NCBI GenBank assembly: GCA_964620095.1
Contig: CAZUGT010000204.1
Coordinates: 4,941-68,940 of the forward strand
Length of the DNA: 64,000 nucleotides
Reading direction: 5' to 3'
DNA from: an uncultured Rhodospirillaceae bacterium
GTDB lineage: Bacteria; Pseudomonadota; Alphaproteobacteria; Rhodospirillales; UBA2165
Shown here: piece by piece, positions 48,417 through 64,000 of the stretch
Numbering within the stretch: the stretch's first letter is position 1
How the letters are laid out: the number at the start of each line of letters is the position of its first letter
Program-made: the position numbers and the translations under genes
The notes under the pieces: generated by a model
Told to the model about the DNA's origin: nothing
The model's input: the letters and a program-made list of their open reading frames with translations, nothing else
Databases searched by the model: none

Positions 48417-49925
48417 TCAGCCGAAGTCGGCCGGATCGGGCAGGTAGAAGGTGGAGCCGCCAACGGTCTGGCGCTCGATCAGGCTTCGGTGTGGCCGGAG
48501 CGGCCGGTATCTCAGAAACGGCAGGACGTGTTCGTCCATCATCCCTTCAACCACGTCCGCATGCTTCGGATCGTCCACGAGGTTGTTGTCTTCGAGGGGG
48601 TCGGTCTCGGAATCGAACAATTGTGCCGGCGTGCGTTCGTCTTCGTAGACCACGAGCTTGTACCGGTCGGTCTTGAACATCCCCATGCCGTAGGATTCGC
48701 TGATCACCACCTTGTGGTCGGGAACCGCGCCTTCGCCCGTAACGGCGGGCAGCAGCGAGCGGCCCTCTGCGGTGGGCAGTTCGGCATTGGCGATGTCCCG
48801 GATGGTCGCCGAGATATCCATGTGCTGAATCAGATCGTCGATCTGGCCGGCCTTCGTGCCCGCGGGCGGACGAACAATGAGCGGGACCTTCACCGCCTGA
48901 TCGAAGAAGACCATTTTCTTGATCATCCGGTGCTCGCCCATCATCTCTCCGTGATCCGAGGTATAGATCACCCAGGTGTTTTCCAGCCTGCCCGTCCGTT
49001 CGAGAGCGTCGACGATCTTGCCGATGGACCGGTCGATGATGCTGACATTCGCGTAGTAGGCGCGGCGCAGTTTGACGATCGCCTCGTCGGTCATGGTTTC
49101 CGAATCGCAGTACCGCAAGAATGCCCTTAGGAAGATGGAAAGCGGGCCCGATTTCGGAACCTCCGGCCGCTTGAGGGACCCCGGCATCGGAATGTCGACG
49201 CCGTCGTACCAATCCACCGCCTCCTGCGGCGCGTCCCAAGGGTCGTGAGGGCCTGGAAATCCGATCTGAACGAAGAACGGCTTGTCGCCGTCATAGTTTT
49301 CCAGCCACTCGGCCGTGAAGTCGCCTAGCCAGGCATCCTGATAGGCGTCCAGCGGCAACGGGATGGGGTCGGCCTGCCAGGCCCGGTAGGGCGGCGCATC
49401 GGGGGCGGCCTCGCGCTTGTGCTTCTGTCTGGAGCCCAGGTAGTCGCGGTAGGTATTCAGCAGGTCCCGGCTTTCGAGGAAGTCGGTGTACTTGGTGTTC
49501 AGGAAATACGTCGCTTCCTTGCCGACCGTCTCCAGCACCTCGGTAAAGCCGTAGCCGTTGAGCTGACCAATTTGCTCATCGGCGTGCTTCACCCGCGGCG
49601 GGATATGGCGCCAGAAGTGGGTCTTTCCGATCACCGCCGTATGGTATCCGGCCTGCTGAAGCGCCTGCGCGTAGGTGGGCACGGCATCGTGGACCTCGGA
49701 CATGTTCTCGAAGACACCATGATCCCGCACGTAGCGTTCGGTGAGAAGGGATGCCCGCGCCGGCATGCAGAGCGGCCCCTGGACGTAGACGTTGTTGAAT
49801 TGGACGCCTTCGCCGGCCAGCCGGTCCGTGCTCGGCGTTTTGGCTATGGGATCGCCCGTGGAGCCAAGCATATCCGCCCGCTGTTGGTCGGGCATGAGGA
49901 GAACGATGTTCGGTTTGTCGGGCAC
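48417..49925 (-). CDS. Type I (Cys-type) sulfatase with no signal peptide
   Basis: MPDKPNIVLLMPDQQR, signature LCMPARASLLTE (CxPxR), and TSDHGEMMGEH. Confidence 0.9.
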   Translation of the reverse strand: MPDKPNIVLLMPDQQRADMLGSTGDPIAKTPSTDRLAGEGVQFNNVYVQGPLCMPARASLLTERYVRDHGVFENMSEVHDAVPTYAQALQQAGYHTAVIGKTHFWRHIPPRVKHADEQIGQLNGYGFTEVLETVGKEATYFLNTKYTDFLESRDLLNTYRDYLGSRQKHKREAAPDAPPYRAWQADPIPLPLDAYQDAWLGDFTAEWLENYDGDKPFFVQIGFPGPHDPWDAPQEAVDWYDGVDIPMPGSLKRPEVPKSGPLSIFLRAFLRYCDSETMTDEAIVKLRRAYYANVSIIDRSIGKIVDALERTGRLENTWVIYTSDHGEMMGEHRMIKKMVFFDQAVKVPLIVRPPAGTKAGQIDDLIQHMDISATIRDIANAELPTAEGRSLLPAVTGEGAVPDHKVVISESYGMGMFKTDRYKLVVYEDERTPAQLFDSETDPLEDNNLVDDPKHADVVEGMMDEHVLPFLRYRPLRPHRSLIERQTVGGSTFYLPDPADFG

Positions 49926-50086
49926 TTTGGCGGCTCCCCGTCAGGTTGACCCTACCCGTTTGGTCCAGGTATTCCGGGATAGTGGAGGCGCCCGCACCAA
50001 AAGAATGTAATCGATCCGACAAACTGGTCCGCGCGTCGCCGCCATGATATTGGAACTAATGCCTAGGCCTCCCGGGAGATACGGAA

Positions 50087-62369: not shown

Positions 62370-63424
62370 CCGAAACTGCGACCAACGGCGGCGCGCCCCT
62401 CCTGAAGGTCAGCGGCCTCAAGACGCACTTTCCCATCCGCAGGGGCGTTCTGGCGCACGTCACCGGGCACGTCTACGCGGTCGACGGGGTTTCCTTCGAG
62501 ATCGAGCGGGGAGAGACCTTCGGCCTGGTGGGTGAAAGCGGCTGCGGCAAGACCACCGTCGGCAAGACCGTCCTCCGGCTGATCGAGCCCACGGAGGGCA
62601 GCATCGAGTTCGAGGGGCGCGACATCACCCGCATCCCCAGGGAGGAAATGCGCCGGCTGCGCCAGCGGATGCAGATCATCTACCAGGACCCGTATTCGTC
62701 GCTCAATCCGCGCATGAAGGCCGCCGACATCGTCGGCGAGCCCCTGAAGGTTCACGACATCGCTTCCGGCGGCGCCTTGCGCGAGCGGGTGGCGGTGCTG
62801 TTCGAGCGGGTCGGCCTCAGGCCCGAACAGCTGGACAATTACCCCCATCAGTTCTCGGGCGGCCAGCGTCAGCGCATCGGCATCGCCCGCGCCTTGGCGC
62901 TCAGCCCCAGCCTCATCGTCGGCGACGAGCCGGTCTCGGCGCTGGACGTCTCCATCCAGGCGCAGGTCATCAATCTCTTGATGGATTTGCAGGAGGATTA
63001 CGAGCTCTCCTACCTGTTCATCGCCCACGACTTGGCCGTGGTCGAGCATATCAGCCAGCGGATCGGCGTCATGTATCTGGGCCGCATCGTCGAGCTGACC
63101 GACAAGCGGACCCTGTTCTCGAACCCGCTGCATCCCTACAGCGAGGCGCTGCTGTCGGCGGTGCCGATCCCCGATCCCGGGGTCACCCGCGACGGCCGGG
63201 TCATCCTGACCGGCGACGTGCCGAGTCCCATCGACCCGCCCGAGGGCTGCCACTTCCATGCCCGCTGTCCCTATGCCACCGAAAGATGCCGGATGGAATC
63301 CCCGAGCCTCAAGGAAGTGGAGCCGAACCACTGGGTGTCGTGCCACCTGCACGAGGGAAGTGCCGCGGACGCGGCGGAACCCCGGCCGGAAACAGAAGAC
63401 CGAATGGAGGACCTGAATCCATGA
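62366..63424 (+). CDS. ABC transporter ATP-binding protein (DppF type)
   Basis: [17 protein letters not shown] and [11 protein letters not shown]. There is an ATGA overlap with the upstream gene. Confidence 0.9.
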
Positions 63425-64000
63425 GCATCACCTTGGAGGAAAAGCCGGTCTTCGTTCTCGGCTGTCACCGATCGGGCACGACCATGCTGATGCTGATGCT
63501 CGGCAGCCATCCCCGCATCGCGGTGCCCGAGGTCGCCTGGTACTACCAGCGGTTCCGCCCCTATCTCCACACCTACGGGGATTTGGGCAGGGAGGAGAAC
63601 TTCCGGACGCTCGCCGAGGAAATGATTTTCACCCTGGTGCCGCCGTTTCTGGGCATGAAGGCCAACCCGGCGACCATCGTCGATGAAATCCTGGGCGATC
63701 TCCGGGAGCGGAGCTTCGCCGGCATCTTCTGCGCCATGCTCGAACGGCACGCCCGGCAGAACGGCAAGCCCCGCTGGGCCGAGAAGTCGCCCAACAACGG
63801 ATTCTTCATCGGCCACATCGTCGAGGATTTCCCCAACGCGCAGTTCATCTACCTGACCCGGGACGGGCGCGACAACGTCGCCGAGACCATCCATTCCCGT
63901 TTCGGCTCGTACAACGCATTCTGCTCGGCCGAGCGCTGGAAGCTGTTCATCAACGCGGCCAAGCCCTGGCGCGAAAAATTGAGCGCCGAACAGTGGCTCG
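63421..64000 (+). CDS. Sulfotransferase-family protein, paralogue 3 (5' part; runs off the right edge)
   Basis: Not in the ORF track because there is no stop in the window. My translation gives [68 protein letters not shown]...[18 protein letters not shown]..., very close to paralogue 1. The ATG overlaps the DppF-type stop (ATGA). Confidence 0.8.

Follow-up and report, generated by a model that had tools for sequence, protein, structure and literature searches.

Three sulfotransferase paralogues joined to a predicted sulfate-ester import and desulfation pathway in one operon of an uncultured Rhodospirillaceae bacterium

The 64,000-nucleotide stretch of DNA from an uncultured Rhodospirillaceae bacterium analyzed here (the window) features an unusual and undescribed arrangement in which a pathway for import and desulfation of sulfate esters is joined to three sulfotransferase copies in one operon (Table 1). 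There is good support for a catabolic core, linked to Crp, whose substrate is a small sulfated hydroxy compound, and three TPST-like sulfotransferases and a DUF3604 hydrolase appear to have been recruited into the operon in one lineage. Tentatively, we regard the whole as a composite operon in which the recruited sulfotransferases act on the same solute class as the desulfating core. As originally predicted, the layout is unlike that of characterized loci: literature and database searches returned none that matches, and no published description of a combined sulfotransferase and sulfatase operon was found in the literature search.

Table 1. Genes of the sulfatase/sulfotransferase locus and the profile matches on which their assignment rests
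Feature	Position	Strand	Evidence
Crp/Fnr-family regulator	46489..47214	-	cNMP_binding and HTH_Crp_2
AprG-like protein (aldolase homologue), 335 aa	47391..48398	+	profile match to AprG
SulfC, leaderless Cys-type (CMPAR) type I sulfatase	48417..49925	-	Sulfatase, E 1e-52
DUF3604/PHP-like metallohydrolase, 777 aa	50087..52420	+	DUF3604, 31 bits (gathering cut-off 20.4)
ST1, PAPS-type TPST-like sulfotransferase, 383 aa	52431..53582	+	Sulfotransfer_3, E 7e-36
ST2, 375 aa	53655..54782	+	Sulfotransfer_3, E 7e-37
Fe-dependent alcohol dehydrogenase (Fe-ADH)	54805..55992	+	Fe-ADH and ADH_Fe_C
BetC-like Cys-type sulfatase	56032..57609	+	TIGR03417, 586 bits (cut-off 433)
Family-5 periplasmic substrate-binding protein	57801..59402	+	SBP_bac_5, E 9e-64
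Dpp/Opp-type permeases	59478-60419, 60424-61317	+	BPD_transp_1, BPD_transp_1_N, OppC_N
Dpp/Opp-type ATPases	61317-62369, 62366-63424	+	ABC_tran and oligo_HPY
ST3, third paralogue, cut at window edge	63421..64000	+	Sulfotransfer_3, E 7e-25

Pfam and NCBIfam profile searches of the open reading frames in the window confirmed all domain assignments of the original prediction, including those of the Fe-ADH, the Dpp-type importer and the three sulfotransferase-like proteins. The open reading frames have the coordinates originally given. The predicted tightly packed block of 11 genes on the same strand, which begins with the DUF3604 gene and reaches the window edge, was also found and is flanked by a divergent leaderless sulfatase and the Crp regulator. 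Read from the sequence in gene order, the gaps measure 10, 72, 22, 39, 191, 75 and 4 nt, so that the upper end of the range first given (10-191 nt) stands and its lower end is corrected to 4 nt. The three start/stop overlaps of 1-4 nt that had been claimed are those between DppC and DppD (TGATG, 1 nt), DppD and DppF (ATGA, 4 nt) and DppF and ST3 (ATGA, 4 nt), with the start codons of DppD and DppF taken from the sequence. The substrate-binding protein possesses a signal peptide and has 8vdx as its best PDB match (E 4e-81), a structure for which a literature search returned no relevant paper. A second sulfatase operon resides at 36545-44672, and all four sulfatases of the window contain CxPxR and lack a leader peptide. 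For SulfC and the BetC-like enzyme, which had been described as Cys-type and leaderless, the motif and the N-terminus agree with this description: both begin 5-15 residues before the conserved PNI(L/V) strand, the definition of the open reading frames excludes longer N-termini, and signal peptides are therefore absent.

The designation BetC-like is backed by the TIGR03417 score above cut-off and by similarity to the choline sulfatase from S. meliloti (PDB 6fny, E 2e-114), while the reading as a choline enzyme that went with it is weakened. In the S. meliloti protein, Glu386 recognizes the quaternary ammonium group; it is invariant in choline sulfatases and needed for choline-O-sulfate but dispensable for aryl sulfate (PMC5870055). 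This residue aligns gap-free to Thr389 of the window protein, and T, S or G occupies the equivalent position throughout the whole BetC-like subclade. Pfam gave no match to the choline-sulfatase C-terminal domain PF12411, and betA, betB, betI and a choline-type transporter are missing from the locus. The Fe-ADH falls below all NCBIfam equivalog cut-offs and is closer to 4-hydroxybutyrate dehydrogenase (320 bits, cut-off 500) than to GbsB (271 bits, cut-off 550). In fungi and plants, choline sulfate is formed by PAPS sulfotransferases and serves as a store or osmolyte, and the similarity to BetC together with the sub-threshold GbsB match of the Fe-ADH could be taken to indicate a comparable make/break cycle, in which a choline sulfotransferase, BetC and a GbsB-type Fe-ADH maintain choline-O-sulfate as an osmolyte or sulfur store. 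Given the substitution of Glu386 and the missing choline genes we consider such a cycle very improbable, and, judged from sequence, the operon is probably not concerned with choline sulfate.

The gene content of related loci points in the same direction. A core of SulfC, AprG-like protein, BetC-like sulfatase, oxidoreductase and Crp regulator recurs at 40-62% identity in Nioella (L101) and in L099, and uncharacterized modules with a Glu-less BetC-like enzyme (56-63% like that of the window) are present in L101, L099, L100 and Casimicrobiaceae L103, though not every gene is found everywhere. SulfC has a 57% identical orthologue in the Nioella module, in L099 and L101 the gene immediately preceding the BetC-like one encodes an AprG-like orthologue (40-45% identity), and in L099, L100 and L101 the modules likewise have a Crp-family gene (33-40% identity) beside them; the Crp/Fnr-family gene of the window thus probably regulates the sulfatase core. 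An alcohol oxidoreductase gene directly follows that for the BetC-like protein in L099, L101 and L103, and the place of the Fe-ADH is taken by a GMC oxidoreductase in L099 and L101 and by a Zn-ADH in L103. The occurrence of non-orthologous alcohol oxidoreductases at one position indicates that the product of the sulfatase is an alcohol which is then oxidized. Transporters differ as well: TctA/TctB genes are located near the L099 and L101 cores, TctC-type receptors also occur among the modules, and L103 features an NMT1-type binding protein, BetC-like, Zn-ADH and FGGY kinase row. None of the cores in other lineages contains a sulfotransferase and none of the subclade modules carries choline genes; the choline context originally proposed is weakened by modules in which the AprG-like protein, a second sulfatase and oxidoreductases accompany the BetC-like enzyme, TTT genes and FGGY kinases occurring as well.

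The AprG-like open reading frame, which separates the Crp gene from that of the divergent sulfatase, is unannotated and had been overlooked in the original prediction. It has no Pfam match above threshold, and a profile of its orthologues matches AprG (PDB 9c95/9lfi) over residues 7-306 (E 1e-27). In apramycin formation, AprG acts as the aldolase by which the aminosugar octose is built (PMC11033246). Rather than choline-O-sulfate, the core more likely has a sulfated sugar, hexosamine or polyol as its substrate.

The first gene of the block had been taken to encode an orphan, a view that did not hold: of 8,000 candidates that were scored against the 777-aa protein, 7,497 are homologues at E<=0.001, and identity is about 70% for many of them. 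Its match to DUF3604 is weak, CehA/McbA is matched with E 2e-5, and the PHP-like part is flanked by beta-sandwich domains. The catalytic domain yielded a poor model, and a fold search gave no informative match. D297, H299, H329, E364, H391, H427, H450, D477 and H479 are invariant in the family, which is consistent with PHP-type metal-binding motifs. DUF3604-like genes are also situated downstream of the sulfotransferase in five metagenome loci, and among the orthologous modules only L099 has a copy nearby (66%).

The RSGTT 5'-phosphosulfate loop and the RDGRD...S 3'-phosphate motif are retained in all three sulfotransferases, and they have a Glu aligned to the residue which we take to be the catalytic base of TPST2. 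The AF2 model of ST1 (pLDDT 89) is TPST-like, with TPST1/2 and the CurM sulfotransferase as top Foldseek matches (E 5e-10 to 2e-8). ST3 shares 75% identity with ST1, and ST2 49-51%, depending on the alignment. ST2 is the most divergent paralogue, with changes in 22 of 104 family-invariant columns and intact PAPS motifs. In L010 the last gene of the operon encodes a full-length ST3 orthologue of 382 aa and overlaps DppF in the same way; L005-L009 have N-terminal ST3 fragments behind DppF. The family is reduced to a single full-length representative in a library clustered at 50% identity. The 26 distant members that were aligned are on average 72% identical among themselves, 58-59% identical to ST1 and the ST3 orthologue and 51% to ST2; the window paralogues deviate in 7-22 of the 104 invariant columns, a divergence that fits altered specificity following recruitment.

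Eighty more distant sulfotransferase loci were inspected, 34 of them flanked by 3 kb or more in either direction. DASS and/or TauE genes are located within 6 kb of the sulfotransferase in 28 of these 34 loci; none of the 34 has a Dpp or Fe-ADH homologue, and a sulfatase, either periplasmic or devoid of the formylglycine motif, is nearby in only three. CysD/CysNC genes adjoin the sulfotransferase in L013 and L052 and ATP sulfurylase genes in L098 and L022, the latter also with a PAPS_reduct gene, from which use of activated sulfate by the family can be deduced. It is conceivable, albeit rather doubtful, that the constant partner of the family is just a source of sulfate (in most bacteria a DASS/TauE transporter with Sat or CysDNC), that the window sulfotransferases keep the acceptor of their family, unrelated to the imported ester, and that importer and sulfatases provide the sulfate for PAPS. 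The high conservation among distant members suggests one common acceptor, in L086 and L093 genes for a TauA/SsuA-like ABC importer come after the sulfotransferase and each locus also has a sulfatase, and a futile cycle need not be invoked. However, three paralogues that are the most divergent members seen are unexpected for an ancestral role, and the sulfatase core also feeds carbon metabolism via the alcohol dehydrogenase and the AprG-like protein. Free sulfate is abundant in seawater, and an organosulfate source thus seems needless for a putatively marine alphaproteobacterium.

Aryl sulfotransferases regenerate PAPS from p-nitrophenyl sulfate, and the sulfotransferases of the window could in principle run in reverse, shifting sulfate from an imported aryl-type ester to PAP and so gaining PAPS without ATP. 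Their placement in one putative transcription unit with a sulfate-ester importer, the location of the L022 gene inside a Sat/PAPS_reduct assimilation cluster and the arylsulfate sulfotransferase identified near the L086 gene would agree with this. Yet sulfotransfer to PAP from alkyl or sugar sulfates is thermodynamically unfavorable, the co-encoded sulfatases would consume the donor, and the full sulfate-activation genes beside most family members argue for the forward direction, rendering reverse operation extremely unlikely.

Conservation of the neighborhood was seen in eight related contigs (L002 and L004-L010) with complete gene order, but not outside one narrow clade with 82-97% amino acid identity, in which common descent would by itself account for synteny. 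Among close relatives the DUF3604 gene is either present or cleanly absent, the latter in L004 and L005; an IS630-like element is inserted between the DUF3604 gene and ST1 in L008 and another IS inside DppC in L010; the Fe-ADH and SulfC genes are split in L008/L009; near-identical blocks are shared by MAGs with the labels Rhodospirillales and Paracoccaceae; and upstream synteny in L002 ends at about 45 kb. The locus may therefore be decaying or mobile, and a sulfatase island and a sulfotransferase cassette could have become mere neighbors through insertion or rearrangement. We regard this as improbable, because ST1/ST2 sit between the DUF3604 and Fe-ADH genes while ST3 separately overlaps DppF, and two independent, tightly spaced insertions are unlikely to be neutral. 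Moreover, catalytic motifs are intact in all three sulfotransferases and the order is retained in all eight contigs, down to 82% identity.

In the composite operon that we tentatively favor, the high-affinity Dpp-type ABC importer would carry a sulfate ester into the cytoplasm, where the formylglycine-type SulfC and the Glu-less BetC-like enzyme would strip off sulfate and the AprG-like aldolase homologue and the alcohol dehydrogenase would process the freed carbon skeleton. ST3, apparently coupled translationally to the last ATPase of the importer, and ST1 and ST2 may have solutes of this same class, imported or already desulfated, as their substrates and re-sulfate other positions or related acceptors, such that the operon would turn over or remodel a cytoplasmic sulfate-ester pool rather than serve degradation alone. 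PAPS would be supplied by sulfate-activation genes elsewhere in the genome, and, speculatively, the DUF3604 protein might clear nucleotide by-products, PAP for instance, or cleave another ester. Several observations count against this reading: sulfotransferase, sulfatase and Dpp genes are linked in a single narrow clade with insertions and disruptions among its members, orthologous cores elsewhere work without a sulfotransferase, most sulfotransferase-family loci lack a neighboring sulfatase, and no gene for PAPS synthesis, cysQ or a formylglycine-generating enzyme is present within the window. In addition, sulfation and desulfation in the same compartment would constitute a futile, ATP-consuming cycle unless positions or acceptors differ.

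Among known systems, ats/ssu and polysaccharide utilization loci likewise combine sulfatases with organosulfur transport, but their sulfatases are usually exported and they are not known to carry PAPS sulfotransferases; SusCD, TonB-dependent transporter and glycoside hydrolase genes are missing from the block. NodH/NoeE with NodPQ exemplify a bacterial PAPS sulfotransferase beside dedicated sulfate-activation genes, as in some of the homologue loci, yet the NoeE match amounts to only 26 bits where the cut-off is 500, and nod and sulfate-activation genes are absent from the window. TPST1/2 and CurM are the nearest solved folds to ST1 and have the 5'-PSB loop and 3'-PB motif in common with it. 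Identity to TPST1/2, RaxST-type enzymes and CurM is about 20%, the comparison with RaxST not being direct; the window sulfotransferase has a conserved C-terminal extension of about 150 aa, and a peptide substrate, a RiPP precursor and a PKS context are all missing from its locus. With betICBA/BetC from S. meliloti the window shares a cytoplasmic Cys-type S1 sulfatase of the same broad family and an alcohol oxidation step after the sulfatase; it differs not only in the choline-specific traits discussed above but also in its Dpp-type importer, second sulfatase, AprG-like protein and three sulfotransferases. Another related system, on the sulfotransferase side, is an uncharacterized sulfotransferase-DASS-TauE module from Desulfobulbaceae and Xanthobacteraceae MAGs and diverse environmental metagenome contigs, with or without a sigma-54 activator, Sat or CysDNC and a DUF3604-like gene. 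Its enzyme of 384-385 aa is 53-62% identical to ST1 and has the same C-terminal extension, and the DUF3604-like gene recurs adjoining the sulfotransferase. DASS, TauE, sigma-54 activator and sulfate-activation genes are not present in the window, where, instead of one sulfotransferase, three divergent paralogues are tied to sulfatases and a Dpp-type importer.

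The gene series predicted from position 50087 to the window edge is borne out by the ORF map and by Pfam and NCBIfam scans (see table). Read from the sequence, the intergenic gaps within this operon measure 10, 72, 22, 39, 191, 75 and 4 nt, and three genes overlap their predecessors (TGATG, ATGA and ATGA). The original prediction was thus right about three start/stop overlaps but not about a gap range of 10-191 nt, the smallest gap being 4 nt. The last overlap joins the importer gene dppF to ST3, one of the three sulfotransferase genes, which reads as translationally coupled to the importer. 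The Dpp/Opp-type importer comprises a family-5 binding protein (SBP5) that carries a signal peptide, a pair of permeases and a pair of ATPases ending in oligo_HPY. A signal peptide was found in the binding protein only, and the four window sulfatases begin straight at the catalytic domain.

Features of the window
Feature	Coordinates	Strand	Content or best match
Partial TctA ORF	13274-14518	+	C-terminal quarter of TctA
HipA_C ORF	26068-26781	+	237 aa; HipA_C kinase domain alone
Polyol-type operon	27296-36175	-	SorC-like regulator, SBP_bac_1, fused permease, ATPase, mannitol dehydrogenase, two PfkB kinases
Second leaderless-sulfatase operon	36545-44672	+	IclR regulator, SBP_bac_1 sugar-type binding protein, two permeases, sulfatase, ATPase, sulfatase
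Second-operon sulfatases	40588-42153 and 43161-44672	+	leaderless
AprG-like ORF	47391-48398	+	335 aa; no Pfam family
SulfC	48417-49925	-	Sulfatase (Pfam/NCBIfam)
DUF3604	50087-52420	+	777 aa; weak DUF3604 and CehA/McbA matches
ST1	52431-53582	+	Sulfotransfer_3
ST2	53655-54782	+	Sulfotransfer_3
Fe-ADH	54805-55992	+	iron alcohol dehydrogenase
BetC-like	56032-57609	+	Sulfatase; TIGR03417, 586 bits (cut-off 433.45)
SBP5	57801-59402	+	family-5 binding protein
Two permeases	59478-60419, 60424-61317	+	Dpp/Opp type
Two ATPases	61317-62369, 62366-63424	+	ABC_tran and oligo_HPY
ST3	63421 to window edge	+	Sulfotransfer_3

Elsewhere the window abounds in transporters and in genes for sugar or polyol catabolism. 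Directly ahead of the sulfatase region comes the polyol-type operon, which may matter should the sulfated substrates prove to be esters of polyols or sugars. Two further ORFs may be incomplete, one a possible truncated toxin with a HipA_C domain and the other a possible gene fragment beside a full TctA gene. Among the window ORFs covered by domain scans, there was neither a PAPS-synthesis gene nor a formylglycine maturation enzyme (FGE or anSME domain). An Rfam scan of 36-64 kb (E<=0.1) found no riboswitch or other RNA, and promoter and terminator scans gave signals no higher than shuffled expectation.

The sulfotransferase assignments hold up against family HMMs: all three proteins match Sulfotransfer_3 far above the 27-bit cut-off (E-values of 7e-36 for ST1, 7e-37 for ST2 and 7e-25 for the ST3 fragment). 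ST3 is cut by the window edge. An exact-match look-up beyond that edge yielded only a 4.7-kb contig, and the 3' end of the operon was taken from a relative (L010), in which ST3 encodes 382 aa and is the last operon gene, followed by a convergent epimerase gene. Invariant in the three paralogues and 30 family members are RSGTT (R17-T21), the 5'-phosphosulfate-binding loop, the 3'-phosphate motif RDGRD...S (R148-D152 and S160) and E37. The latter aligns with the Glu of the 'CGE' segment in TPST2, which we take to be at or beside the catalytic base Glu99. The AF2 model of ST1 (pLDDT 89.4, pTM 0.90) retrieved sulfotransferase folds for all of its top 50 Foldseek matches in the PDB, with TPST1/2 first and the CurM/OLS sulfotransferases also among the nearest.

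The family is tight. MAGs labelled Nitrospirota, Desulfobulbaceae, Desulfobaccales, Peptococcaceae and Xanthobacteraceae encode homologues with 53-62% identity, and a full search through 1.84 billion representatives (clustering at 50% identity) gave a single full-length high-score match (449 bits), the next full-length ones scoring far lower. Among themselves, 26 more distant aligned members are 72% identical, and their identity to ST1 and the ST3 orthologue is 58-59% and to ST2 51%. The window paralogues depart from the family at 7-22 of 104 invariant columns and are, on this alignment, its most divergent members. Matches to ST1 in a plasmid collection (tblastn) reached about 26% identity only.

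Sulfotransferase contexts were examined in five look-ups and 80 metagenome loci; 34 of the 80 are flanked by 3 kb or more to the left and right. In 28 of these 34 the sulfotransferase has DASS (Na_sulph_symp) and/or TauE as a neighbour no more than 6 kb away, and a highly conserved 384-385-aa TPST-like sulfotransferase, DASS and a TauE/TSUP permease form a recurrent same-strand module (L011-L014, L018, L019-L098). It resides in MAGs labelled Desulfobulbaceae and Xanthobacteraceae and on diverse environmental metagenome contigs, often features a PrpR_N sigma-54 activator and sometimes includes a PAPS_reduct or DUF3604-like protein. CysD/CysNC adjoins the sulfotransferase in L013 and L052, as does ATP sulfurylase in L098 and L022. 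Because the neighbours are DASS/TauE, CysD/CysNC and ATP sulfurylase, the family is predicted to comprise forward sulfotransferases that use activated sulfate and are habitually linked to sulfur-anion transport. Sulfotransfer in reverse, onto PAP, is very improbable against this background. We found no publication on the sulfotransferase-DASS-TauE module. As a tight, widely distributed family almost always set beside DASS/TauE and often beside sulfate-activation genes, these enzymes provide a testable lead as to their acceptor.

None of the 80 metagenome loci contains a Dpp, SBP5 or Fe-ADH homologue, and three (L086, L093, L022) feature a sulfatase-family gene. L086 (7038-18292), and L093 with it, presents a different context. 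In L086, genes for GntR and a flavoprotein precede the sulfotransferase, after which come an ABC ATPase, a permease, a TauA/SsuA-like binding protein, a HEAT-repeat protein, an exported arylsulfate sulfotransferase (ASST) and an exported CxAxR sulfatase. The sulfatases of both loci are exported and, in L086, the adjoining ASST is as well. In L022 (2070-12588), a sulfur-assimilation-like cluster encloses the sulfotransferase in the order GntR, motif-less sulfatase-fold protein, sulfotransferase, DASS, ATP sulfurylase, second motif-less sulfatase-fold protein, PAPS_reduct and TauE; both sulfatase-family genes lack the formylglycine motif. We had considered such independent linkage as strong support for a sulfotransferase-sulfatase partnership and downgraded it, as the L022 proteins are motif-less and the L086 sulfatase and ASST exported. 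The family's habitual neighbours also bear on the main rival explanation, in which the acceptor retained by the sulfotransferases is an unrelated one, with the organosulfate importer and sulfatases merely standing in for DASS/TauE as sulfate supply. We consider this somewhat unlikely.

All window sulfatases match PF00884 with E-values of 1e-50 to 1e-53 and carry CxPxR motifs (CMPAR in SulfC, the sulfatase divergent from the operon; CSPSR in the BetC-like protein; CAPSR and CTPSR in SulfA and SulfB). The BetC-like enzyme strongly matches choline sulfatase from S. meliloti and passes the TIGR03417 equivalog cut-off. In the S. meliloti enzyme the quaternary ammonium group is bound by Glu386, a residue conserved throughout the choline sulfatases, and an E386L exchange lowers activity about 1,000-fold on choline-O-sulfate but not on aryl sulfate (PMC5870055). 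This residue aligns ungapped with Thr389 of the BetC-like protein, which has no PF12411 (Choline_sulf_C) match at E<=0.01. Neither betA, betB or betI nor a choline-type transporter was found in the 64-kb window or in orthologous BetC-like loci. The label 'BetC-like Cys-type sulfatase' is therefore apt as regards the Cys-type motif and the TIGR03417 score, but a choline substrate is not borne out. A choline-O-sulfate cycle, for which the equivalog score speaks, is very unlikely in view of the exchanged glutamate, the absent C-terminal domain and the missing bet genes.

The closest BetC-like homologues (56-63% identity; Nioella, Casimicrobiaceae) are annotated 'choline-sulfatase' and all have T, S or G at the Glu386 position. 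According to precomputed Pfam lists, the closest homologues (P0241-P0256) lack PF12411 and most homologues with no more than 57% identity have it; more distant BetC homologues retain 'SEYSSEG' and PF12411. A subclade without Glu and PF12411 (P0241-P0256 and P0280; loci L099-L101 and L103) can thus be discerned, on which the 'choline-sulfatase' label is probably a systematic mis-annotation. In the plasmid collection, tblastn with the BetC-like protein retrieved canonical BetCs only, at no more than 50% identity.

Genomic surroundings of this subclade are informative. In Nioella (L101), a Crp gene is accompanied by, in this order, tctA, tctB and genes for a SulfC orthologue (57%), a 334-aa protein, a BetC-like sulfatase (59%) and a GMC oxidoreductase. 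L099 is laid out in a similar way, L100 represents a TTT island with several sulfatases and a Crp gene, and the Casimicrobiaceae locus L103 encodes an NMT1-type binding protein, BetC-like sulfatase, Zn-ADH and FGGY kinase. The 334-aa protein, situated directly upstream of the Glu-less sulfatase in L101 and L099, is orthologous (40-45%) to a previously unannotated window ORF between the Crp gene and SulfC. A profile of these orthologues matches PDB structures 9c95/9lfi of AprG (E 9e-28, residues 7-306 of 335), an enzyme for which GlcNAc or GalNAc presumably serves as the two-carbon donor. AprG is the aldolase by which the aminosugar octose in apramycin is formed (PMC11033246). In the plasmid collection, tblastn with the AprG-like protein gave one 23% match, located beside AMP-binding and HAD genes on a Klebsiella plasmid.

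As the contexts of Glu-less BetC-like sulfatases share its genes, a catabolic core consisting of Crp, two cytoplasmic sulfatases, the AprG-like enzyme and an alcohol oxidoreductase is conserved in several lineages. Transporters and oxidoreductase families interchange around it, which argues that the sulfatase product would be an alcohol that is oxidized next. All this argues for a sugar-, hexosamine- or polyol-like substrate rather than choline, and the subclade with its AprG-like and interchangeable oxidoreductase partners represents a further testable lead towards sulfated sugars or polyols. Literature searches returned neither a description of the Glu-less BetC-like/AprG-like module nor a relevant paper on PDB entry 8VDX.

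The 777-aa protein encoded by the first operon gene is not an orphan as had been claimed: 7,497 of 8,000 candidates scored are homologues at E<=0.001. Their identity is typically about 70%, and Pelagibius, Kiloniellaceae, Thalassospiraceae and Sneathiella are among their sources; the Pelagibius gene follows a Crp gene with no sulfotransferase nearby. PF12228 matches residues 317-425 only (31.1 bits, cut-off 20.4) and NF038032 (CehA/McbA) has an E-value of 2e-5. The residues invariant in the family (D297-x-H299, H329, E364, H391, H427, H450 and D477-x-H479) look like PHP-type metal ligands, an assignment of our own. The AF2 model has a pLDDT of 75 overall and of about 50 in the poorly modelled central catalytic domain, and Foldseek found counterparts for no more than the Ig-like beta-sandwich domains on either side of it (TM <0.2). 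Sequence searches of the PDB gave no match, and nothing relevant on DUF3604 was found in the literature.

In two relatives (L004, L005) the DUF3604 gene is cleanly absent, homology stopping 23 nt into the ORF and resuming at the ST1 start with about 250 nt in its place, and in L008 an IS630-like transposase gene separates it from ST1. The gene acts like a cassette. DUF3604-like genes (28-31% identity) are also located downstream of members of this sulfotransferase family in five metagenome loci, and L099 has a copy with 66% identity close to its orthologous sulfatase module, so that some loose functional tie to sulfate-ester genes is plausible; this recurrent linkage, too, can be tested, and DUF3604 may have an accessory hydrolytic role.

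One genome-collection scan and exact-protein look-ups recovered the whole gene order in eight related contigs (L002, L004-L010), at 82-97% amino-acid identity, in Rhodospirillales MAGs and two MAGs labelled Paracoccaceae. The predicted neighbourhood of sulfotransferases, sulfatases and Dpp genes is thus conserved within one clade but not beyond, where the sulfotransferase and sulfatase halves are found separately. The Paracoccaceae-labelled copies (L008, L009) are 82-95% identical to the Rhodospirillales versions, which suggests mis-binning, mis-classification or recent horizontal transfer. In L010 (5604-7352), an insertion sequence (DDE_Tnp_1) resides inside dppC and SBP5 is split; Fe-ADH or SulfC genes are split in L008 (12375-13579) and L009 (5166-6661, 12374-13554). 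These disruptions may be assembly errors (low-coverage or long-read) or may reflect decay and pseudogenization. GC content is about 0.53 over the window's initial 40,000 bases and 0.59-0.66 in the studied block, and the second sulfatase operon is absent from the syntenic position in L002, where PIN/FitA and Peptidase_M78 genes are found. Insertion sequences and split genes would suit a mobile, decaying region in which the operon's genes are uncoupled neighbours, an explanation we regard as unlikely beside a gene order retained in eight related contigs.

One tightly spaced unit unites a catabolic core for desulfation with three sulfotransferases, all intact and inserted at two sites. The best-supported reading, still a tentative one, is that of a composite operon in which the sulfotransferases may take as acceptors solutes of the class that is imported or desulfated and would thereby serve remodelling or turnover, with PAPS supplied from elsewhere in the genome. 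A more far-reaching proposal, which we consider unlikely, is that a hitherto undescribed, multi-phylum TPST-like small-molecule sulfation system (with DASS/TauE, sulfate-activation genes and DUF3604) has in this alphaproteobacterial clade been joined with a two-sulfatase pathway and importer. Together they would make and break, or remodel, a sulfated solute of sugar or polyol type other than choline sulfate in a cytoplasmic cycle. The solute would be a sulfur or osmolyte store or would reflect remodelling of host metabolites, and DUF3604 would be a new PAP/PAPS- or ester-directed hydrolase. If true, this would be the first bacterial operon with PAPS sulfotransferases and sulfatases acting on one solute pool; to our knowledge, there is no earlier one.

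Few bacterial PAPS-dependent sulfotransferases with defined small-molecule acceptors are known to us. Predicted co-transcription of cytoplasmic sulfotransferases and sulfatases raises the question why sulfate esters should be made and broken in one compartment. Should both share a solute, a new mode of organosulfur storage or remodelling would emerge, with significance for marine and possibly host-associated sulfur cycling. Each part of the operon falls into a known superfamily. That opposing activities are paired is truly odd and open to direct test, and their linkage is phylogenetically narrow. No description of a sulfotransferase-sulfatase combination was found in the literature, sponge symbionts included. 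The locus is not a bet locus, since three of four defining features fail, nor is it an ats/ssu locus, a polysaccharide utilization locus or a nod sulfation system, and the original view that its layout matches no characterized locus holds as far as we could establish.
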